From a virus (Duplodnaviria; Heunggongvirae; Uroviricota; Caudoviricetes), in the IMG/VR virus record IMGVR_UViG_2671180296_000012: a stretch of DNA of 35,325 nt; one strand, 5' to 3'. Each line of letters begins with the position of its first letter. Position 1 is the stretch's first letter. The notes beneath the pieces were generated by a model, which saw only the letters and a list, made by a program, of their open reading frames with translations, was not told the origin of the DNA and did no database searches. The position numbers and the translations under genes were made by a program. Positions 1-35,325 of the stretch are shown in pieces.

Positions 1-1002
1 TTACCCTCTATTGTCAAAAGGGTTCAATTCAACAGCAGCCTCTAAATGACCTGGAGCAAAATGCGCATAACGCATAGTCATTTTTATATCGCTATGCCCC
101 AGTATTTTTTGCAACACAAGAATATTTCCGCCCCGCATCATAAAATGACTGGCAAACGTGTGACGTAGCACATGAGTTAATTGCCCATCAGGAAGCTCGA
201 TCTTCGCTCTCTTAATTGCAGCGTCAAAAGCCTCATAACATGGTGAAAATAGCGCTCCTCGTTTTTTAGGAAGCATAGCCTGCAATTGAGGTGAAATCGG
301 TACAGTGCGGTTCTTCTTTCCTTTAGTTTTAACAAATGTGATTCGACCGGGCAGTACTTGAGATTGCTTTAATCCTTCTGCTTCACTCCACCGAGCACCA
401 GTCGCAAGCCCAATACGGACAACAACCCCCAAATCTTTATTCCGTGACTCATCACACGCAATCAGAAGGCGTTCAATCTCATCTACATACAGAAACGCCA
501 GTTCCTTTTCTTCCTCACGAAACTTGCGAATACCAGTCAGGGGGTTTTCACCAGACCACTCCCCAAGGCGCTTCAGTTCGGCAAAAACAGCATGTAGATA
601 TGACTGCTCGCGATTAACGGTTGCTTCACTAAGTTTTTTCTTCCCCTTGGGATTCCATTCTCCTGATAGCCTTCTTTCCCGATAAGTAGCAAACATATTT
701 TTGTCAAACTGAGAAGCAAATGGATCTCCCAGCCTGGAACAAATCGCCTCAAGTTTGACTTTGCGCTCTGCACCAGAGGACAAGGTTTTACCGTACATCT
801 CAAACCAACGAGCAATCAACTCAGAAAGACGAGGACCAGAACCATCTTGAAACTCGTCTCCAACTCTACTATTCATTAAACGGCGCTCATAAGAGAGCGC
901 CTCACTTTTTGTCGCAAACTGTTTACGAATGCGTTTTCCCGATGCCCCGTAGGGATAACATTCGCAAAGCCATTTACCTGATGGAATCTTACGAACCGAC
1001 AT
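1..1002 (-). CDS. int: tyrosine site-specific integrase (P2 Int family)
   Basis: 333-aa ORF; C-terminal region has the tyrosine recombinase signature (ARWSEA, THVLRHTFASHFMMRGGNILVLQKILGH, MTMRYAHFAP) and resembles P2 Int from memory. Confidence 0.9.
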   Translation of the reverse strand: MSVRKIPSGKWLCECYPYGASGKRIRKQFATKSEALSYERRLMNSRVGDEFQDGSGPRLSELIARWFEMYGKTLSSGAERKVKLEAICSRLGDPFASQFDKNMFATYRERRLSGEWNPKGKKKLSEATVNREQSYLHAVFAELKRLGEWSGENPLTGIRKFREEEKELAFLYVDEIERLLIACDESRNKDLGVVVRIGLATGARWSEAEGLKQSQVLPGRITFVKTKGKKNRTVPISPQLQAMLPKKRGALFSPCYEAFDAAIKRAKIELPDGQLTHVLRHTFASHFMMRGGNILVLQKILGHSDIKMTMRYAHFAPGHLEAAVELNPFDNRG

Positions 1003-1007
1003 TTTAG

Positions 1008-1355
1008 TTACTTATCACATAAATCAAATGCAGCCTTAGTGACATCCCCCAGACTCTTTTTTAACCCTGGGGCGGCATCATTATCTAGCCAAAATGGATT
1101 ATTGTTATCTAACGGTAACGCACCAAATGTTTTACCTTTTATTCGAGCCAAACCTGTAAGTGCATATAACTTATTATCGTCAAAATTCATCACATAAGGA
1201 TTACCATCAAGACACTGTAATTGAACCTCATCAGTATTAAATGGCCATACCCCATTGAAACTCTCACGTTCAATAGTTTTAAAAGGCATTGCGACGGCGG
1301 AAAAAGAAAACATAGATAAAAAAGTAACTAATAGTTGAACCTTTTTTACTTTCAT
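1008..1355 (-). CDS. secreted small protein, YebY/DUF2511-like (accessory)
   Basis: 115 aa with an N-terminal signal-peptide-like hydrophobic segment. Pattern W-x-FN, EV-L-C, GN-YV-N, DNNNP, C-terminal LC resembles the E. coli YebY family as recalled; assignment is from memory only. Confidence 0.55.
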   Translation of the reverse strand: MKVKKVQLLVTFLSMFSFSAVAMPFKTIERESFNGVWPFNTDEVQLQCLDGNPYVMNFDDNKLYALTGLARIKGKTFGALPLDNNNPFWLDNDAAPGLKKSLGDVTKAAFDLCDK

Positions 1356-1384
1356 ATCATTACCTCAATTTAGCTCAAGTAAGA

Positions 1385-2035
1385 TTACAAATTAAAAAGC
1401 ACCCTAGAAATGACACCGCCTACCAACCCCCCTACGCAGATAAAGAATATTATTTCTTTTGGATAAAGTCGGATTAATTCTGAAGCACGAAGTCGGACTT
1501 CTGGTAAGGTCGAACTCTCTGTGTGGCTTGATGCCGATTGTTGCTCTAACCACGACAATGCAGACTGTAACTGAGAACGAGTAAGATCGTTTAAACGTCC
1601 TGTACCGAAATTGATATGGCAATACCGCAGAAGTTTTTGTCGAAGTCCACAGTCTTCACTGTTACGTAGTAATAAACTTACAAGAGCCTTACAGGCATCA
1701 TGATCTTTACATCGCTCAAGCATTGCATGCAGAAAACTCTCCGCTGTTTTATATTGATTTACTGTCATATCATCAATACCAGCTACACCAATCTCCGCAT
1801 GTACTTTTTGCCAAATAATAAACGCTTCAGTATTGCTAGCTTCTGCAATAGCAGCAACCAAGCTATTTAGCTCCTTACGCTGAGCCTTAAGCAAAGGGCG
1901 ATCGTCATCATCATTATTCGAAGGGATTGCGATATTGACGGTATGAGAACCATCATATCGCTCTATCTGAATATTCTTTTCGTGAAAATCACGCCCAGCA
2001 ACGCGATTGTTTGAACCGTTTGAGTTGACGGCCAT
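1385..2035 (-). CDS. hypothetical protein with C-terminal membrane anchor (accessory)
   Basis: 216-aa ORF ending in a hydrophobic segment (IIFFICVGGLVGGVISRVLF). N-terminus contains NNRVAGRDFHE, matching NNRIAGRDYNE at the C-terminus of the adjacent repressor. Confidence 0.6.
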   Translation of the reverse strand: MAVNSNGSNNRVAGRDFHEKNIQIERYDGSHTVNIAIPSNNDDDDRPLLKAQRKELNSLVAAIAEASNTEAFIIWQKVHAEIGVAGIDDMTVNQYKTAESFLHAMLERCKDHDACKALVSLLLRNSEDCGLRQKLLRYCHINFGTGRLNDLTRSQLQSALSWLEQQSASSHTESSTLPEVRLRASELIRLYPKEIIFFICVGGLVGGVISRVLFNL

Positions 2036-5036: not shown

Positions 5037-7829
5037 ATGACGGCAGAGTACATCAGGGACTGGCAACAACCGCGCCACGCAGTGGGGCGTGAAGGAACGG
5101 GGATCCCCGCTCCTGAATCCGCGCTTTCCTCCTGGCTGGATGCCTACCGGGTAGAGAACGAGCGCCGCCAGGAAATGGCTGATGCGGCGTTCTCCGCCAC
5201 GCCGCAGGGCAACCTGATTAATAAAAGCCTGGACGCACAGGAAAAACAGGACAAAACCATCACACTGGCAGGAGACGCCAGAAAACAGGCACGCGGCGCG
5301 GTGGATGAAGCCATGGCCTCGCTGCGCCTGCTGCCGTCCTATCTGCGCGATCCGCTTATTCGCCACCTCTCCTTCCTGCGCAAAAAACAGGAAGCCGATC
5401 GCCGGAAAGGCAAAAAGAGCTGGCAGGCGGAACGCTATGCACGCGGAACCCTGCGCAAAATATTCGAACGTCTGGATAGCACTGACGGACGCTGGCTGAC
5501 ACCGGGTTATCGCTCCCTTGCCGGACGCGAACGCCTGGACGATTTGCTTTACCTGCCGCAGCTCAACAAACACCAGATACAGACGCTGGCCACCATGACG
5601 GCGGCGATGTTCAGCAGCACCTTCGAAAAACTCTGCGATGGCTTTGGCGCGACCGATGGCGAGCTGACCATGGATGTAACGCTGAAGGCGTATCAGATGC
5701 TGGCCCGCATGGCGTTACACCTGCACGCCATGCCTCCACATTATGACGCACTAACAACAGACAAAGACCGGAGGAACGAACCGGACACGGAGCTGCTGCC
5801 GAGCGCAATCCTTCGCCTGACCTGTGCGGAATGGTGGAAACGCAAACTGTGGCTGTTACGTTGCGAGTGGCGGGAAGAACAACTCCGCGCCGCCTGTCTG
5901 GTTTCCAGAAAGACATCACCCTATCTGAGCCAGGACGCGTTAAGCGAGTTTCGCGCACAGCGCGAGAAAACACGCGATTTCCTGAAAAGTTTCATGCTGG
6001 AAAACGAAGACGGGTTCACGATTGATCTCGAGACAGTGTATTACGCGGGAGTAAGTAACCCGGTTCACCGTAAGGCAGAAATGATGGCCACCATGAAGGG
6101 ACTGGAACTTCTGGCCGAAGCCCGTGGCGACAGAGCGGTGTTTCTGACCGTCACCTGCCCGTCAAAATACCACGCAACAACGGAGAACGGTCATCCGAAC
6201 CCCAAATGGAACGGGGCCACCATGCGCGACTCCAGCGATTACCTGGTTAACACGTTTTTTGCGGCGGTCCGCAAAAAACTGAACCGCGACGGCCTGCGCT
6301 GGTATGGCATCCGCACGGTGGAGCCTCACCATGACGGCACTGTGCACTGGCATATGATGGTCTTTGCACATCCGGACGAGATTGAAACCATCGTGTCCCA
6401 CGTCTGCGATATTGCCATTCAGGAGGACCGCCACGAGCTGGGCGATGACATAACTCCGCGTTTTAAGGCGGAGTATGTCGACGGCTCAAAAGGCACACCA
6501 ACCAGCTACATCGCCACCTACATCGGAAAGAACCTGGACAGCCGCGCCGTGGATGGCATCGACCCGAAAACGGGCAAGCCACGCGTTGACCACGAAACCG
6601 GAAAATCAATGGCCGAGAGCGTGGAGCGCGCCATCGGCTGGGCGCGCCTTCACCGGGTCCGCCAGTTCCAGTTCTTTGGCATTCCCTCCCGTCAGGTGTG
6701 GCGTGAACTCCGCCGCCTTGCCAGCCAGATGGCACGCAACCCGGAGGGCCCGCAACGGCTGAAGGATGACGCAATGGATGCGGTTCTTGCTGCCGCTGAT
6801 GCCGGGTGTTTTGCCACCTACATTGAAAAACAGGGTGGCGTACTTGTTCCGCGCAAGGACTACCTGATTCGCACAGCCTACGACCTCGCAGATGAGCTGA
6901 ACGATTACGGCGAACAGAGTGTACAGATTTACGGGATCTGGTCGCCACTCATCGGGGAATCCTCCCGTGTGTGCACGCACCCGGATAACTGGAAGCTGGT
7001 AAGACGTAAACCGGAAGCGGAAGACAGCACCCACGAAAATGGTTTTGACCTTCAGGGCGGCCCTGCCGCCCCTTGGACTCGTGGCAATAACTGTCCCCGT
7101 GTACAGGAAACGAACAACAACGGGACAGAACAGCCGGAAGAACGGCCAGCACCGTGGCCGCAGCTTCCTGACGGCGTTGACGTGAATGAATGGATGCGCT
7201 CACTGAAACGGCACGAACGTCGGGCGCTGATGCGTTCGCTTCGCGACAAACAGGCAAAAAACAGCAGTGATGAAATGCAGAACTGGTCACAGAGCCGCAA
7301 GCAGCCGCGGCCTTTGCCTGATAACCACGAATTACTCGCTAAAGAATGGCGGGAGTCTGTCGAATCTCTCGGCCTGCATATCGGTGAACAACAGATGCTG
7401 CACCTGTTACGGGGCGGCAGTCTGTACGTTGACGGCAGCATCATTGCACCGCAGGGATTTGAAATTGTACGCAAACCGGATACCCGCCCGGACAGCCGAA
7501 TCACGCAGCTCTGGCAGCGCCTGAGCCGTAATCACGGCGTAAGCAGCACGGAGATCCGTCATAACCCGGTCGCCAGCTATCTGGAACAGCTGGGGGCATC
7601 AGACCCCGAAGCCGCCGCACGCCTGGCATCCACACTTCAGCAGGACCAGAACACCATGAAAACACCCGTTACCGTGCTTTCTGACATGCTGCGCGCCATC
7701 CGTAACGCAGAGCACGAACAGAGAATCAGTGAAACCACTGAACGCGCCCGCCGCAAAGCAGACCTGCTGCGGGGTGGACTGACCAGTGGAAACAAAAACA
7801 GACAGAAACGGGATTCACAAATCCCGTAA
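5037..7829 (+). CDS. A: replication initiation protein gpA (HUH rolling-circle endonuclease)
   Basis: 930 aa; HUH-type motif GTVHWHMMVFAHP and paired-tyrosine motif YIATYIGKN, as in the P2 gpA family. Confidence 0.9.
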   Translation: MTAEYIRDWQQPRHAVGREGTGIPAPESALSSWLDAYRVENERRQEMADAAFSATPQGNLINKSLDAQEKQDKTITLAGDARKQARGAVDEAMASLRLLPSYLRDPLIRHLSFLRKKQEADRRKGKKSWQAERYARGTLRKIFERLDSTDGRWLTPGYRSLAGRERLDDLLYLPQLNKHQIQTLATMTAAMFSSTFEKLCDGFGATDGELTMDVTLKAYQMLARMALHLHAMPPHYDALTTDKDRRNEPDTELLPSAILRLTCAEWWKRKLWLLRCEWREEQLRAACLVSRKTSPYLSQDALSEFRAQREKTRDFLKSFMLENEDGFTIDLETVYYAGVSNPVHRKAEMMATMKGLELLAEARGDRAVFLTVTCPSKYHATTENGHPNPKWNGATMRDSSDYLVNTFFAAVRKKLNRDGLRWYGIRTVEPHHDGTVHWHMMVFAHPDEIETIVSHVCDIAIQEDRHELGDDITPRFKAEYVDGSKGTPTSYIATYIGKNLDSRAVDGIDPKTGKPRVDHETGKSMAESVERAIGWARLHRVRQFQFFGIPSRQVWRELRRLASQMARNPEGPQRLKDDAMDAVLAAADAGCFATYIEKQGGVLVPRKDYLIRTAYDLADELNDYGEQSVQIYGIWSPLIGESSRVCTHPDNWKLVRRKPEAEDSTHENGFDLQGGPAAPWTRGNNCPRVQETNNNGTEQPEERPAPWPQLPDGVDVNEWMRSLKRHERRALMRSLRDKQAKNSSDEMQNWSQSRKQPRPLPDNHELLAKEWRESVESLGLHIGEQQMLHLLRGGSLYVDGSIIAPQGFEIVRKPDTRPDSRITQLWQRLSRNHGVSSTEIRHNPVASYLEQLGASDPEAAARLASTLQQDQNTMKTPVTVLSDMLRAIRNAEHEQRISETTERARRKADLLRGGLTSGNKNRQKRDSQIP

Positions 7830-7899
7830 ATGAGCAAAAAACGCGCCATAAAACATGAAGTGCGCACAAAACAGGCAAAAGCGGGATTTCAGAATCCCG
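7808..7899. promoter_or_regulatory. two near-identical palindromes (ACGGGATT-N4-AATCCCGT at 7808-7827; CGGGATT-N4-AATCCCG at 7882-7899) upstream of parM; candidate parC-like centromere/operator
   Basis: Read directly; centres about 73 bp apart; the first overlaps the 3' end of gene A; located where parC lies relative to parM in R1-type loci. Confidence 0.35.
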
Positions 7900-7934
7900 T
7901 AAACGATTAATTAATCAACATAAGGAAAAGCGAC

Positions 7935-8894
7935 ATGAAAATTTGTATCGACGACGGCTCCACCAACATCAAGCTGGCATGGACTGAGAACGGCGAACGC
8001 CGCAACGCCATCAGCCCGAACAGCTTCAAGTCGGAATGGTCTGCGCCGTTCGGTGGCACGCAGCCCGCGAACTACATGCTTGATGGCGTGCGCTATGGCT
8101 TTGATCCGGTCAGCGATCGCTTTGTCCAGACGACCGACACGCAGTACCAGTACAGCGATGTGAATGTAGTTGCCATTCATCACGCACTGGTCAAATCAGG
8201 CATCACACCACAGGAAGTGGATGTGGTTGTCACCCTACCACTGAGCGAGTATTTCGACACAAACGCACAGCCGGACATGGCCAACATCAACCGCAAAAAA
8301 GCGAACGTCATGCGCCCGGCGGAGTACCAGAACGGCGAAGCATTCACTATCCGTAACGTACGGGTTATGCCTGAATCCATTCCGGCTGGCTTTAAAGCAC
8401 TGGCTGACATGAGTCCGTTTGAATCCCTGCTGATTGTGGATTTAGGCGGAACCACGCTGGATGTGGCAAAGGTTCAGGGACAACTGGCAGGTATCAGCCA
8501 GGTGTTTTGCGATCCACACGTAGGCGTTTCCCTGATGGCCGATGCCGTACTGTCGGTGATGGCCACTAACGGTATGCGTACCAGTCACCACATCGCCAAT
8601 ACCATTATCGAACATCGCCATGATGAAGCCTGGCTGCGCCAGCACATCCACAATGACGCGCATTACGACAGCCTGATGGCGGTTATTCGTGAAAAGGAAG
8701 AAACACTGAAACAACGCGTGATCCGCGCGCTGGCGGGTTTTTCGGGTTACGGGCGGGTGATGGTTGTCGGTGGAGGGGCGGAGATTGTGGCACCCGCTAT
8801 CCGCGAAGCCTGCGGAGTTAATGCGACTTTCATCGCGGACGGGGTGCCACAGTTTGCTCTGGTTAATGGGCTGTACGCAATGGACAAGGAGTAA
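7935..8894 (+). CDS. parM: actin-like segregation ATPase ParM/StbA homolog
   Basis: 319 aa; strong resemblance to plasmid R1 ParM as recalled (MKICIDDGSTNIKLAW, ISPNSFK, YSDVNVVAIHHAL, VMPESIPAG, LLIVDLGGTTLDV, VMVVGGGAE). Confidence 0.85.
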   Translation: MKICIDDGSTNIKLAWTENGERRNAISPNSFKSEWSAPFGGTQPANYMLDGVRYGFDPVSDRFVQTTDTQYQYSDVNVVAIHHALVKSGITPQEVDVVVTLPLSEYFDTNAQPDMANINRKKANVMRPAEYQNGEAFTIRNVRVMPESIPAGFKALADMSPFESLLIVDLGGTTLDVAKVQGQLAGISQVFCDPHVGVSLMADAVLSVMATNGMRTSHHIANTIIEHRHDEAWLRQHIHNDAHYDSLMAVIREKEETLKQRVIRALAGFSGYGRVMVVGGGAEIVAPAIREACGVNATFIADGVPQFALVNGLYAMDKE

Positions 8895-8898
8895 ACCA

Positions 8899-9210
8899 AT
8901 GACGACACCAACCAGACGGATAAGTTTCTATCTGAAGCCCGCCGCCGTCAAGAACGAAGGCGAAGCATGTGCCTGGCTGGACAGCCTTACGCCAGAAGCC
9001 CGCAAAAGCGGCCAACGCGTGGCTTTTTTGGCCGGGCTGGCACTTCTGAAAATGAATCCAGCAGAGGCTTACCGACTGGCTGCATGGGCTGACGATGAGG
9101 CGTTATCGGTGACACAAACCAGGACAGAACACCCCGTGTCACAGCCAGTACCAACCGCACAGATAACCAGTCAGATGGCAGGGAATATCCGGGCATTATT
9201 TCCTGAATGA
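8899..9210 (+). CDS. parR: ParR-like ribbon-helix-helix centromere-binding protein
   Basis: 103 aa from the ATG at 8899 (AAGGAG upstream), directly after parM as in R1; ISFYLKP, FLAGLALL and NIRALFPE resemble R1 ParR from memory. Confidence 0.6.
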   Translation: MTTPTRRISFYLKPAAVKNEGEACAWLDSLTPEARKSGQRVAFLAGLALLKMNPAEAYRLAAWADDEALSVTQTRTEHPVSQPVPTAQITSQMAGNIRALFPE

Positions 9211-9270: not shown

Positions 9271-9795
9271 ATGAAAAAATACGAATACATGCTAATGAAA
9301 GAAGCACTGCGGGCTGGTCTGGCTCCCTGTCCTGTATCCGTAGAGGCTGTTGTTGGGAACACGATTTTCCGAACGCTGCGAAATCGCGTATCCGTGAAGA
9401 TGATTCATCAACCACCCAAATCTACCAGCATGATCTATCTGCCGCTGCCCGAGGCTATCAAACTTATGCGTTCGCTGAAATTTGCGATTTGGATGCAGAC
9501 ACAACTCAACAAAGCGGTGCAAAACACCTTCGTTAAGAAACTGATGCCGGAGCTTGCTGCCAGATGTGCAAAATGTACCAGACCCGCACTTCAATTTGAT
9601 CTGTCATTGATTCAACAAGCTACGGAGGCAGAACTATACCGCCTGTCACCTCTCCATGATGCTCACACGGAAGCCTCAGAAATGTTCCGGCTCATGTTTC
9701 AATTTAATTTTGCCGTTCGACGCACACACGTTCAGGTCAATCGCATGATGCAGGCGCAGGAAGAGCTGGCGCAACACAAAGGAGGCAACCAGTGA
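9271..9795 (+). CDS. hypothetical protein (accessory, A-Q hotspot)
   Basis: 174-aa ORF with GAGG upstream; stop overlaps the start of the next gene (GTGA). Confidence 0.55.
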   Translation: MKKYEYMLMKEALRAGLAPCPVSVEAVVGNTIFRTLRNRVSVKMIHQPPKSTSMIYLPLPEAIKLMRSLKFAIWMQTQLNKAVQNTFVKKLMPELAARCAKCTRPALQFDLSLIQQATEAELYRLSPLHDAHTEASEMFRLMFQFNFAVRRTHVQVNRMMQAQEELAQHKGGNQ

Positions 9796-10382
9796 GCAAG
9801 ATTGACTATCAGGCATTACGCGAACGTTATTCACCTGTGCCAGTACCGAAATGCCATATTTGCGGCGAGGAAATGTCAATTCAGCGAATATCTGGAGCAC
9901 AGGTTGTTTATGCCTGCTCCGGTTATGGTGATGATGGAGATTTCAAAATTGGTCGAACTCTTGCCGACGAACATTATGAAAAATCACGCGTAACAGTGTT
10001 GGATGTCGGGGATCCTGAAGTATTGGCGCTACTTGATTGGCTGGAAACTAAAGACAACCGAATCGCTGAACTGGAAAAAATCGCCACTGACTATGCACTT
10101 AAATTCCAGAAAGCACAGGACGCATTAAAGTACGCCGCTTTGCTGCATAGCCGAACGGCGCAACAAACCAATAATTTTGCAGTATTGCTTCCGGACATAA
10201 GCGAATATTTCATTAATAACGTATTTCAGCCCTTGCGATACGAGCGGGATGTTGAAAGAGCCATCATAAAGGCTGGCGGAAAAGCATTGTGGCAGGAGAA
10301 ACACGAGGACAGAACGCATCAGTCCTGCGATGTAAATTGTGGATGGTTTAGCCCACTGACGACAGATAAAAATAACACCTGA
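9792..10382 (+). CDS. hypothetical protein with N-terminal Cys cluster (accessory, A-Q hotspot)
   Basis: 196-aa ORF, GTG start overlapping upstream stop; CHICGEEM...YAC near N-terminus and SCDVNCGW near C-terminus. Confidence 0.55.
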   Translation: MSKIDYQALRERYSPVPVPKCHICGEEMSIQRISGAQVVYACSGYGDDGDFKIGRTLADEHYEKSRVTVLDVGDPEVLALLDWLETKDNRIAELEKIATDYALKFQKAQDALKYAALLHSRTAQQTNNFAVLLPDISEYFINNVFQPLRYERDVERAIIKAGGKALWQEKHEDRTHQSCDVNCGWFSPLTTDKNNT

Positions 10383-10872: not shown

Positions 10873-11919
10873 TCAGGATGTGGGCTGGGTATCTAACAGT
10901 GCGTAAGGGTTAAAGCGGATCACCTCTTCGCCAAGCCAGTCATTGATGTGCTTCATGGCCTCCATGACGGGCATCAGCTCGTTAATTGCGTAAACCCGCG
11001 CGGCCTTCTCCACATCACCAAACGCACTTTTTTCGCCCGGCATCGCCCCCATCAGTTGCGGCGGAACGCGGTGCGCAGCCAGCACATCATCACGGGATGC
11101 CGCCTTAACATTCATGAACTCATCTTTTGCGGTGATCTGCTGGAACGGCAAAATTTGCACCCCCTCTTTGCCCCCGTTGGGCGCATGAATGAGCACGTTT
11201 TTAAACGCACCACCACCACGTGCCCCCTGTAGCGTTTCTTTCAGGGAGTCCATGCTTTCGCGGTTTACCTGCGCTGCACCGATGTAGATGATGCACCCGG
11301 CGTGGGATCCGTTGTCGTAGTACAGTTTTCTGAACATGTCCGCCGAATGAGAAAGGCTGGCCGAGAGTAATGCGCCAAGATATTCCGGCATGCCGTAGAT
11401 TTCCTGGTTAATATCCGGATTCATCAGGTGGCACACTTTGCCAGGACGAAACTGAAACGCGTCCTTGCCATCCTGCACATACCACCATGATTCAAGATCG
11501 CTTCCGCGTCGCATGTATTTCGCCAGTGCGTGCCGTAATTTAAGCGGTTCGCCGAGCATATTGCTCCGAAGCTCAAGGAATGCGTTACCGAACACAAACC
11601 AGTCCAGCGCCAGCGCCGAGAAATCCTGCCGGGAAAGCAGCGGGTGCGGGATGTAGCAACCGAGTAATACATTGCGCTTAAAGTAAAGCGCAGACTGATG
11701 CCAGGACGTTTGCCGGGCTGCTCTTGCCAGACCGTACCAGTCCACCGGGGTTTCATACCACCGCCCGTTATCAGCACAGTACATATTGTCCAGCAGGTCA
11801 TGCCCGGTCAGGCGATAAGGACCATCAAATGTGAATGCACTGAGCGATGATTCTTTCCTGAGCGCATCAGCGAGATCAATGCGTGAACTCATGCGCACTT
11901 TTTTATTTTTTCTGCTCAT
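10873..11919 (-). CDS. Q: portal protein gpQ
   Basis: 348 aa; leftward, adjacent to the terminase large subunit as in P2. Confidence 0.9.
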   Translation of the reverse strand: MSRKNKKVRMSSRIDLADALRKESSLSAFTFDGPYRLTGHDLLDNMYCADNGRWYETPVDWYGLARAARQTSWHQSALYFKRNVLLGCYIPHPLLSRQDFSALALDWFVFGNAFLELRSNMLGEPLKLRHALAKYMRRGSDLESWWYVQDGKDAFQFRPGKVCHLMNPDINQEIYGMPEYLGALLSASLSHSADMFRKLYYDNGSHAGCIIYIGAAQVNRESMDSLKETLQGARGGGAFKNVLIHAPNGGKEGVQILPFQQITAKDEFMNVKAASRDDVLAAHRVPPQLMGAMPGEKSAFGDVEKAARVYAINELMPVMEAMKHINDWLGEEVIRFNPYALLDTQPTS

Positions 11920-13670
11920 CAGAACTCCATAACCGTGAAACGCTCGTTTTCTCCTTCGCCGCCAATCGGTTCGTTAATGACAGCAAGCATGGTTGCCCAC
12001 GCAAGGTCGCCGTGGCTGATCCCCCTCGCGCGGTCCGTTTCGTAAGTGATAAAGCCGCCCGGTGTTTTCACCTTACGCACGGCGTTAAAGGCCGCGACCA
12101 GCTCGCGTTCGGCGCGATCGTATTCCCACCGCCCGGCACGCATTATTTGCAGCATTTTCAGTACCAGCGACCGTTTTGATGACAGCGTGAAGGTGTACGG
12201 AATAGCAGCAGGGAAAAACCGTTTCACTATCTGATAAACAGCCTCCCCGTTCCCGCCCGTCACATCAATGCCGATGTGTTCCACGTTGTAGCGACACGTG
12301 AACTCTTCAATGACTCTGGCCTGTTCTTCAAACTCCAGCCCCTGAACGCGTCGCGTCTCCACCGTTCGAAAACGGCCACCAGGAACAGCCGGAGGAACCA
12401 CCACGGACACAGCGCCGCTGTCGCCGTTGCCACTGCTGCCGTTTGCGTCATACCCAATCCATACCGGACGATTCCCCATCGGGCGGGGAGCAAAAGGTTT
12501 CCAGTCTTTCCAGTCGTCGTATCCGTCAACACCGCAGCCAATCAGGATATTCAGGTTAAATGCCGATTCCCCTTCGCGGACAAACTCACACATATAGAGA
12601 TTGCGGAACTCGTCTTCGGTGTTTTCATCACGAATTTCGTCAATATCGGTGTGTTTCCAGCCGTGATTAACCACATCTTCCAGCGTGACAATTTGCCGCC
12701 ACGTCCGGTCAGGGCAGATAAGCCCGTTATGCAGCGTTTTCCAGTCCACAGAAAAACGCTGACGTTTATGCGTGGCCTTTTTCTCGTTCCAGCGGTCGCC
12801 GTTCCAGTAGGCGTATGCCTCGTGCGTTTCGGTGGATGGCGTGGAGAAGTAGGTGCGCCGCAGTCCGCTGAGGGTTGCCATAGCGCCAGCCACCTTGCGC
12901 AGTTCAGCAAAGCGACTGACCCAGAAAAATTCATCAAAATAAAAATTGCCCGTATAGGACTGTGCCGACGCAGCAGAAGTGCCGAGAAAATGCAGTTCTG
13001 CGCCGTTGGAGAGGATGATTTTATCGCCCCCTTTCAGCTCCACATCAACTTCAGCCGCGGCCTTCTGAATAATGCTTTTAAACTGGAACGCCTGACGACG
13101 CGACGCAGACAAAAAAATCTGGTTACGCTGGTAAGGCTGCGCCACATCGTCACGCAGCGCCATCAGCAGTGCTTCCTGTGCAAAATACCAGGTCGCCCCA
13201 ATCTGTCGGGATTTCAGGATCATCCTGTTACGTATCCCGGCTTCCCTGCAAAGGGTCAGGGAGTCAAACCAGCCCCGCTGATGCCACTCCAGCCTGCTGA
13301 TGATTTTTTCCCGCAGTGCGGCAATCTGTTCCGGCGTGAAATGATTTTTGAGTTTTTTCGCCCGGCCTTTCTTTCCTGTGGCCGTCGCATCCGGCTGGCC
13401 ATCATGCAGTTTTTTAAGCTGCCGGGTCAGCAGGTCTATTTCCTTGAAGTCACCACCTGTTTTATTCTGTTTTTCAGTGAGCTGGATGAGGCGCGCATCG
13501 ATGGACTGCGTGACACGCTGCACGGGTGGCGTTTCATCCCACTGGTCGCGTTTTTTCCACGCATAAATCGTGTTCGGGTTTATTCCCATCAGACGTGATA
13601 TTTCTGCGGGCGGATAACCCTGCCAGTAAAGTTGTCGCGCACGCTGGCGCACAAAAGCGTCCTGAATCAT
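11919..13670 (-). CDS. P: terminase large (ATPase) subunit gpP
   Basis: 583 aa; N-terminus MIQDAFVRQRARQLYWQGYPPAEISRLMGINPNTIYAWKKRDQWDE; position next to Q. Confidence 0.9.
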   Translation of the reverse strand: MIQDAFVRQRARQLYWQGYPPAEISRLMGINPNTIYAWKKRDQWDETPPVQRVTQSIDARLIQLTEKQNKTGGDFKEIDLLTRQLKKLHDGQPDATATGKKGRAKKLKNHFTPEQIAALREKIISRLEWHQRGWFDSLTLCREAGIRNRMILKSRQIGATWYFAQEALLMALRDDVAQPYQRNQIFLSASRRQAFQFKSIIQKAAAEVDVELKGGDKIILSNGAELHFLGTSAASAQSYTGNFYFDEFFWVSRFAELRKVAGAMATLSGLRRTYFSTPSTETHEAYAYWNGDRWNEKKATHKRQRFSVDWKTLHNGLICPDRTWRQIVTLEDVVNHGWKHTDIDEIRDENTEDEFRNLYMCEFVREGESAFNLNILIGCGVDGYDDWKDWKPFAPRPMGNRPVWIGYDANGSSGNGDSGAVSVVVPPAVPGGRFRTVETRRVQGLEFEEQARVIEEFTCRYNVEHIGIDVTGGNGEAVYQIVKRFFPAAIPYTFTLSSKRSLVLKMLQIMRAGRWEYDRAERELVAAFNAVRKVKTPGGFITYETDRARGISHGDLAWATMLAVINEPIGGEGENERFTVMEF

Positions 13671-34323: not shown

Positions 34324-34410
34324 TGGTACCCGGAGCGGGACTTGAACCCGCACAGCGCGAACGCCGAGGGATTTTAAATCCCTTGTGTCTACCGATTCCA
34401 CCATCCGGGC
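34324..34410 (-). tRNA. leuZ: tRNA-Leu (anticodon UAA)
   Basis: Reverse complement reads GCCCGGATGGTGGAATCGGTAGACACAAGGGATTTAAAATCCC...GGGTACCA; 87 nt with long variable arm and encoded CCA. Confidence 0.9.
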
Positions 34411-34422
34411 TCGGGAAGAAAG

Positions 34423-34496
34423 TGGAGGCGCGTTCCGGAGTCGAACCGGACTAGACGGATTTGCAATCCGCTACATAACCGCTTTGTTAACGCGCC
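34423..34496 (-). tRNA. cysT: tRNA-Cys (anticodon GCA)
   Basis: Reverse complement reads GGCGCGTTAACAAAGCGGTTATGTAGCGGATTGCAAATCCGTCTAGTCCGGTTCGACTCCGGAACGCGCCTCCA; 74 nt. Confidence 0.9.
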
Positions 34497-34549
34497 AAAT
34501 TCTTCAGGCCTTTCAGCCGGACATCCGCTGAAGCCGATGTCTTTTAAAC

Positions 34550-34625
<76 letters not shown>

Positions 34626-34776: not shown

Positions 34777-35325
34777 TCACTGATCAAGCAAATCTGCACG
34801 CGCAGCGCTCAAATATTGCAACATTGACCACAGAGTCAGTACCGCAGCCACAAAGAAAAGTGCAATACCGGCGTACTCAACCCAAATGTTCGGACGCCAC
34901 AGCAGCCAGGCCAGCGCTACCATCTGGGCAGTGGTTTTCACTTTCCCAATCCAGGAGACAGCCACGCTACTGCGTTTACCCAACTCTGCCATCCATTCGC
35001 GTAGCGCAGAAATAATAATTTCACGGGCGATCATCGTTGCCGCCGGTAATGTCACCCACCAGCTGTGATAATGCTCGGTTACCAGCACCATGGCGATAGC
35101 CACGAGAACTTTATCTGCTACAGGGTCAAGGAAAGCACCAAACCGGGTACTCTGGTTCCAGCGGCGTGCCAGAAAACCATCGAACCAGTCAGTCACCGCC
35201 GCGACGCAGAAAATGAGCGCGGCGGCAAACGGCGACCAGGTGACAGGCAGATAAAAGACCAATACAAAGAATGGGATAAGGATGACACGGAACAGTGTAA
35301 GCAACGTAGGGATATTAAATTGCAT
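34777..35325 (-). CDS. pgsA: CDP-diacylglycerol--glycerol-3-phosphate 3-phosphatidyltransferase (phosphatidylglycerophosphate synthase)
   Basis: 182-aa ORF (start codon at window end) with the CDP-alcohol phosphotransferase motif [10 protein letters not shown]...[10 protein letters not shown]; matches E. coli PgsA as recalled; upstream of glyW-cysT-leuZ as in E. coli. Confidence 0.95.

Follow-up and report, generated by a model that had tools for sequence, protein, structure and literature searches.

Why would a phage that integrates into the chromosome of its host carry the segregation genes of a low-copy plasmid, and on which DNA would such genes act? The question is raised by the IMG/VR virus record IMGVR_UViG_2671180296_000012, a stretch of 35,325 nucleotides (nt) analyzed here as a whole (the window), which is an integrated P2-like (P88-type) prophage beside host tRNA genes. 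Directly downstream of its replication gene A lie the genes for an actin-like ATPase, ParM (7935-8894, plus strand, 319 amino acids), and for its adaptor protein, ParR (8899-9210, plus strand, 103 amino acids; the ATG is 4 nt past the parM stop). The two almost certainly form a genuine and selected ParM/ParR pair. Our preferred reading, built by sequence comparison, is that the module is a working variant of ParMRC which would act on circular phage DNA in transient extrachromosomal phases; taken as a whole, this chain stands about evenly between right and wrong.

That P2-like phages carry parMR is on record both in annotations and in print. The RefSeq annotation of phage P88 (genus Xuanwuvirus) contains a "plasmid segregation protein ParM" and a "partition protein", and the PHROGs database has families for both ParM and ParR. 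A survey of the gpA-gpQ region reported a putative partition system in approximately a fourth of Escherichia coli P2-like phages (Rousset et al., 2022; PMC9122126), and in the paper on phage phiSM the gene of the module is listed as a "fitness" factor (PMC6456863). The original prediction, which was made from the letters of the window and is followed up here, regarded a partition system in an integrating prophage as unexpected. This view is not borne out by the records above, nor by the precedents of srpMRC and AlpAC, which are compared with the module below. The literature searches found no study of what parMR does in P2-like phages.

ParM and ParR Proteins

ParM matches the Pfam family StbA_N (E 1.4e-81) and the ParM C-terminal domain (1e-68), and its residues 2-316 align with the PDB structures of R1 ParM (1mwk, others) at approximately 50% identity (E 3e-92). 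The phosphate-binding and adenosine motifs are kept: IDDGSTNIKL, VMPESIPAG, DLGGTTLD, and GGGAE are identical or nearly identical to those of R1 ParM. Within the E. coli lineage the ratio of non-synonymous to synonymous substitution rates (dN/dS) of parM is approximately 0.07. Of 80 IMG/VR loci sampled for their similarity in ParM, 79 have an intact parM; parR could be judged in 78, and in 76 of these it has its full length.

ParR belongs to the Pfam family PF10784, Plasmid_stab_B (StbB/ParR family; 1.6e-24), and to phrog_2515, "partition protein" (3e-58), and it is 34% identical to R100 ParR across residues 6-61. Conservation along the protein is very uneven. The first 18 residues, TRRISFYLKP included, are almost invariant, and the strand RRISFYLKP is unchanged across 30 alleles. 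Residues ~66-95 form a hypervariable linker, with many alleles and identity as low as 52%, and among otherwise near-identical phages ParR falls into dozens of 90%-identity clusters as compared to very few for ParM. The C-terminal motif NIxxLFPE is again conserved. Written as N-[IA]-x-x-[LF]-F-P, it can be aligned with KKNAMKLIN at the C-terminus of R100 ParR; all 10 aligned sequences and all 30 alleles have its Asn. In the R1 system, the extreme C-terminus of ParR is reportedly the ParM-binding peptide. The AlphaFold model of the ParR monomer, of low confidence with a predicted local distance difference test (pLDDT) score of 54, has helices at 20-29 and 38-52 that fit a ribbon-helix-helix domain, with the strand unformed in the monomer.

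The position of parM and parR directly after gene A and before Q, their order behind a candidate cis site and the homology of both proteins had all been part of the original prediction, and the coordinates and the profile and sequence searches above agree with it. The order cis site, parM, parR is common to the window and parMRC of R1 and R100 (stbA/stbB). ParM is approximately 50% identical in the two settings with all nucleotide-binding motifs present, and the ParR proteins belong to one Pfam family and can be aligned both in the putative DNA-binding region at the N-terminus and in the C-terminal motif. The differences concern the host, which is an integrating P2-like phage here and a low-copy plasmid there, the cis element, the length of ParR (103 as compared to 116 amino acids, an internal helix segment being absent here), and the placement of the window ParM in a phage-specific clade.

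Distribution and Constancy of the Module

Among 5426 complete E. coli genomes, parMR is present in 1307 (24%), that of O157:H7 EDL933 included, and in 1278 of them at a coverage of at least 80%; the 3' end of gene A is present at this coverage in 1355 genomes. In the phage collection, the 14 records with this gene A 3' end are the same 14 that have parMR, and the DNA that varies between the phages is the stretch from parR to Q. The original prediction had seen parMR as variable cargo of the tin/old kind. On these counts it is instead a constant of the lineage of P88-like (Xuanwuvirus) and related P2-like phages, and not accessory cargo.

The same arrangement, with ParM 95-99% identical, is found in Xuanwuvirus phages (P88, P884B11, phiSM, 520873, Chuche, and others), and it recurs in the CP-933T-type remnants of E. 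coli O157:H7. The window does not differ in essentials from its Xuanwuvirus relatives; what sets it apart is its ParR allele, the cargo that follows parR and one A-run, altered by 1 nt, where gene A ends. A scan of genome contigs with ParM gave three close loci. The module is also present on a contig labeled Vagococcus sp. (Firmicutes; NZ_JBQPOM010000071.1). Its ParM there is 97% identical to that of the window, as is typical of E. coli-type prophages, and the contig is probably a case of assembly contamination or mislabeling.

More diverged relatives were found by protein search and contig look-ups. In prophages of Plesiomonas, Hafnia, Serratia, and Enterobacter the ParM is 54-62% identical to that of the window and occupies the same A-ParM-ParR-...-Q position, and it is better conserved than A, Q, and P, which are 30-55% identical to those of the window. 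Loci ranked by the identity of ParM fall into an order different from that given by Q/P, and this suggests that P2-like phages exchange modules. In a neighbor-joining tree (no bootstrap) the ParMs of verified phage context form one clade, apart from those of R100, IncI, and other plasmids. In Dickeya and Mangrovibacter, homologs at 50% identity or less are encoded by an integrated conjugative element and an integrated plasmid. Genes are also found between A and parM in some of these prophages: a 167-aa open reading frame (ORF) in the Hafnia locus (L013, 5453-5956), and a methyltransferase-like ORF together with a small ORF in the Enterobacter locus (L016, 4914-5848). Insertions are thus possible to the left of parMR too.

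Several degraded prophages have kept the module. The prophage of O157:H7 EDL933 is truncated, with a pseudogene of the IS3 family right beside parR; IS1203 interrupts gene A in O111:H8 SF4-1, and in CAU16175 gene A is frameshifted. In each of them parMR is intact.

An alternative for which this persistence speaks is that ParMR, expressed from the integrated prophage, would serve the lysogenic state, either as a benefit to the host or in the exclusion of competitors, e.g., by partition incompatibility toward related phages or plasmids or by another kind of anti-phage defense, as with the cargo of the adjacent hotspot. The module borders the gpA-gpQ region, a known defense hotspot, and a hypervariable stretch with many alleles, such as the ParR linker, is a pattern sometimes seen in conflict genes. 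However, neither ParM and ParR nor the products of the two ORFs downstream have a match in PADLOC, and the module is constant in the lineage and diverges along with it, instead of being shuffled like defense cargo. In addition, ParM is under strong purifying selection and has diversified little, and the window holds no further copies of the candidate ParR sites on which the proteins could act. We consider a lysogenic-state function unlikely.

Two Palindromic Sites Upstream of parM

The preferred reading of a ParMRC variant requires a cis site, and the region upstream of parM offers a candidate. The pattern CGGGATTNNNNAATCCCG (CGGGATT-N4-AATCCCG) has exactly two matches in the 35.3-kb window, 73 bp apart from start to start, in agreement with the spacing given in the original prediction. 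The chance expectation is 0.14 matches with up to two mismatches, and none of 100 shuffles gave two. Site 1, CGGGATTcacaAATCCCG, lies at 7809-7826 (-126 from the parM ATG) and is a candidate ParR-binding site, the distal half of a parC-like element; site 2, CGGGATTtcagAATCCCG, lies at 7882-7899 (-53) and is the candidate operator and centromere site next to parM. The search for further sites in the window gave only a chance-level match with three mismatches at 6046. Each palindrome is enclosed, a detail absent from the original prediction, in one copy of a 39-nt direct repeat detected by repeat search (7795-7833 and 7868-7906, plus strand), the two copies being 79% identical and 73 bp apart, and the distal copy overlaps the last codons and the stop of gene A.

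Nucleotide diversity was calculated from 79 upstream sequences of the E. coli lineage (78 IMG/VR loci and the window). It is 0.005-0.015 in three of the four half-sites, as compared to 0.068 at the four-fold sites of parM, and 0.11-0.13 in the site centers. The spacer between the sites (7827-7881, plus strand) has a diversity of 0.058, a roughly neutral rate, and the conserved leader block ATTAATTAATCAACATAAGGAAAA (7900-7934, plus strand), in which the ribosome-binding site AAGGA precedes the parM ATG by 8 nt, has 0.038. A leader-like block, TTAATCAA..AAGG, is also present in Plesiomonas and Hafnia.

The paired sites can be followed into these two genera, in which ParM is only 61-62% identical to that of the window. 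The distal and proximal sites are CGGGATTCACAAATCCCG and CGGGATTTCAGAATCCCG in the window (spacing 73 bp; -126, -53), CGGGACAACAAAAACCCG and CGGGACAACACTAACCCA in Plesiomonas (72 bp; -132, -60), and TGGGATTGAGGAAACCCA and CGGGTTCATTAAATCCCA in Hafnia (73 bp; -129, -56). The outer CGGG...CCC(G/A), the 10-bp gap and the spacing of 72-73 bp are kept in both, while the inner stem bases are changed. Serratia and Enterobacter have a different pair, with inverted arms of 14-20 nt (GGGAAC...ATAGAAAAAT) and 26-28 nt between the arms; its left flank, GGCAAAA-N-(C/T)GGGA, is common to the proximal site of the window.

It could be argued that the palindromes are elements acting at the RNA level and unrelated to ParR, namely leftward terminators, or attenuators or processing sites located where the early operon ends. 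Both are indeed the top minus-strand terminator-like sites, having stems of 7-8 bp, T-rich tails and folding energies of approximately -9 to -11 kcal/mol. Yet the window has no minus-strand gene downstream of either palindrome, and no T-run follows them on the plus strand. In most of the Plesiomonas and Hafnia sites, which have kept the outer bases and the spacing, the stems are down to 3-4 bp and the hairpin energy to approximately -4 to -5 kcal/mol. Nor are changes in one arm of a stem matched by compensating ones within the E. coli lineage (e.g., CGGGACT...AATCCCG), and the region has no Rfam match at E up to 1. The preservation of motif and spacing where hairpin stability has been lost speaks more for a site in the DNA that a symmetric protein would read than for an RNA hairpin or terminator. 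On this ground, and for want of a gene downstream on the minus strand, the terminator was rejected as the main interpretation of the palindromes, and an RNA-level function in general appears improbable. Binding of ParR to the two palindromes, which the original prediction had also proposed, is on the comparative evidence a fairly probable interpretation of these candidate sites.

As to the transcription of the module, the terminator scan detected no plus-strand terminator-like site between A and parM, which fits co-expression with the early replication operon, and parMR is probably co-transcribed with gene A from it. No sigma-70 promoter with 9 of 12 matches was found in the promoter scan of the region, the spacer included. 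By eye, a weak candidate with 8 of 12 matches overlaps site 2 (-35 TTCAGA at 7888-7893, -10 ATTAAT at 7910-7915), and parMR may thus have a weak promoter of its own there. The Ogr-type late-promoter motif TGT-N12-ACA was not seen in 7780-7935, likewise read by eye.

The original prediction described the module as R1-type, in the order parC-parM-parR, and as regards the cis element this does not hold. The parC of R1 type has approximately ten 11-bp direct iterons in two promoter-flanking blocks, and in R1 and R100 these are two blocks of five A/C-rich repeats; such an array is not present here, where only the two 18-bp palindromes are found. Relatives of the module on a plasmid or an integrative conjugative element (ICE; loci L017 and L018) have many TATCTC-type iterons upstream. 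No earlier description of this two-site cis element was found in the literature.

Candidate Substrate and Proposed Mode of Action

Both ends of the window testify to its chromosomal location. A tyrosine integrase gene (1-1002, minus strand) is at the left end, and host genes for tRNA-Leu, tRNA-Cys, and tRNA-Gly (34324-34625) and a host gene for a CDP-alcohol phosphatidyltransferase (pgsA-like, 34777-35325) are at the right end. The sole replication protein detected in the window is that of the rolling-circle gene A (5037-7829, plus strand, stop at 7827-7829; Pfam Phage_GPA, E 7e-130). Phage P88 can be induced from the chromosome with mitomycin C (PMC5285337) and phiSM is spontaneously active (PMC6456863). 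Chromosomal integration, the integrase, inducibility and a replication gene limited to A together make circular phage DNA in extrachromosomal phases the likely substrate. These phases would be the time between infection and integration, and the time after excision when the DNA is replicated by A.

In the mechanism that we propose, dimers of ParR, or dimers of dimers, would bind the two CGGG-N10-CCCG sites via the invariant N-terminal strand. The distance of 73 bp corresponds to approximately seven helical turns and would place the sites on the same face of the helix. The bound sites would constitute a minimal parC, being both the operator of parMR and the attachment point for filaments. The conserved C-terminal motif of ParR would then capture the ends of ATP-ParM filaments, and these would push pairs of site-bearing DNA molecules apart. 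In this way the module could spread or position the replicating circles, or prevent their loss at division, in analogy to AlpAC and srpMRC. The ATPase, the adaptor with its conserved strand and tail, the putative DNA-reading and filament-binding parts, the paired sites predicted to share one face of the helix and the selection acting on the genes are the grounds on which the module is taken as a working ParMRC variant. Whether action on extrachromosomal phage DNA would be its main role we judge to be evenly balanced.

Several observations weigh against this reading. Two sites are few when compared to the approximately ten iterons of R1, R100, and related plasmids. The right half-site of site 2 has changed from CCCG to CCTG in 27% of the 79 upstream sequences, which implies weak constraint on this half-site, and among IMG/VR loci the variant shows no link to the ParR allele. 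The ParR of the E. coli lineage is without a helix segment of ~25 residues that is present in the ParRs of plasmids and of the Plesiomonas, Hafnia, Serratia, and Enterobacter phages, and its absence could impair higher-order assembly; the low confidence of the AlphaFold monomer belongs here as well. Truncated parM clusters (P0010, P0017) with hundreds of members are located on long contigs, so some host lineages tolerate the loss of parM. Finally, intact parM and parR in prophages with a disrupted gene A, and in the truncated remnant of EDL933, could point to a role in the lysogenic state.

For the use of an actin-like system by an integrating element there are two described precedents, both alike to the window in function and architecture only, as drawn from their descriptions. 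The srpMRC system of SXT/R391 ICEs has four 13-bp repeats and was shown to make the excised, replicating element less prone to loss (Carraro et al., 2015; PMC4489591). Like the window, it combines a ParM-like ATPase and a small adaptor in a normally chromosomal element. SrpM is, however, only distantly related to R1 ParM, SrpR is without homology to known ParRs, the host element is conjugative and not a phage, and the function of srpMRC has been demonstrated, whereas that of the window module is predicted. AlpAC, encoded in prophage CGP3 of Corynebacterium glutamicum, is induced early after excision and needed for efficient replication of the phage DNA (Donovan et al., 2015; PMC4446434). Here, too, an actin-like filament former and a co-transcribed adaptor are found in an integrated prophage, and the adaptor binds sites in its own upstream region; the sites upstream of parM in the window are candidates for the same. 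AlpAC differs from the window in its actin-like family, its adaptor, its Gram-positive host and the order of the genes, the adaptor gene being the first. The architecture of the window is thus shared with a class of integrated elements that have an actin-like ATPase, an adaptor and upstream candidate adaptor sites.

The same genes could also allow the phage to persist as a low-copy plasmid, instead of or besides integrating. Plasmid maintenance was suggested by Rousset et al. (2022; PMC9122126), and a related StbA-type ParM (47% identity) is found in the P1-like plasmid prophage D6. There is also a PLSDB record, pZ1323PEC0009-2 (NZ_CP148288.1), which is a 34,461-bp circle with the whole P88-like genome closed across attP. 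It comes from an E. coli isolate of a cat, spans the integrase to the ogr/methylase region and has near attP a Hok/Gef gene and a Com-type regulator with a methyltransferase. Against plasmid maintenance stand the locations of parMR in complete E. coli genomes, of which 1453 out of 1455 are chromosomal and two on plasmids, and the window itself, which is integrated beside host tRNA genes, encodes an integrase and has rolling-circle gene A for its sole detected replication protein. Gene A of P2-type phages is repressed in lysogens. A phage identical to the circular record is chromosomal in a sister strain of the same series, the human isolate Z1323HEC0067, and circular contigs can arise by spontaneous induction, as reported for another prophage (PMC5454188). 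Stable plasmid lysogeny may occur as a rare state; as the explanation of the module we find it quite improbable.

A further copy of the prophage is on the Salmonella IncHI2 plasmid pS2122_1 (NZ_CP110658.1), where it is flanked by the chromosomal genes aroF, tyrA, and pheA. The segment is either a piece of chromosome captured by the plasmid or a misassembly.

That parMR would be a functionless, decaying relic of an old plasmid-phage recombination, as a centromere reduced to two sites and some truncated parM clusters might be taken to mean, is strongly disfavored, being contradicted by a dN/dS of ~0.07, by the intact ORFs in nearly all loci and by the retention of the module at 54-62% ParM identity across genera, better than that of the flanking core genes.

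Neighboring Genes

The interval from A to Q contains four ORFs, all on the plus strand. Besides parM and parR these are a 174-aa ORF (9271-9795), situated between parR and Q, and an Ead/Ea22-like ORF (9792-10382; PF13935, 1.7e-32) which overlaps it; the two make up the variable cargo of the window (9271-10382). The 174-aa ORF has no match in Pfam, PHROG, NCBIfam, or PADLOC. In the prophage copy on pS2122_1, this pair likewise comes after parR. Beyond the cargo lie the portal gene Q (10873-11919) and the terminase gene P (11919-13670), both on the minus strand.

Close to the stop of gene A, five A stand in a row at 7795-7799 of the window; the nine other related loci compared all have six, and so do nearly all IMG/VR loci. 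The 1-nt change shifts the last few codons of gene A, which in the window ends with ...NKNRQKRDSQIP* at 7829; the annotated gene A of P88 extends 29 nt beyond this end. The shorter run may be genuine variation, or else an error in sequencing the homopolymer.

On the left side of the prophage, a gene for a DUF2511 protein (1008-1355) and a 216-aa ORF without family match (1385-2035) are located between the integrase gene and a helix-turn-helix repressor-like gene (2051-2455, 134 amino acids), all on the minus strand. In P88 the integrase adjoins the C repressor, so that the two genes of the window (1008-2035) are extra. They may mark another cargo site, or an immunity region that differs from that of P88, and neither product has a PADLOC match.

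Implications for P2-Like Phages

The genes and their annotation are not new, and the interest of the locus lies in the function of a conserved partition module in an integrating phage. In its widest form, which we put forward tentatively and with some doubt, the proposal is that a clade of P2-like phages, present in approximately one in four E. coli genomes and in several other enterobacterial genera, would use an actin-like spindle of plasmid origin and a minimal centromere of two sites, either to organize or segregate its rolling-circle genomes or to allow a facultative low-copy episomal state. The possible roles include genome positioning as in AlpAC, stabilization of the excised form as in srpMRC and a facultative plasmid state, and the cis element would define a minimal two-site type II centromere. 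The module is very common and strongly conserved, and an account of its role would link plasmid partition biology with phage replication or lysogeny. If the proposal is true, partition machinery would belong to the normal life cycle of a phage that integrates.

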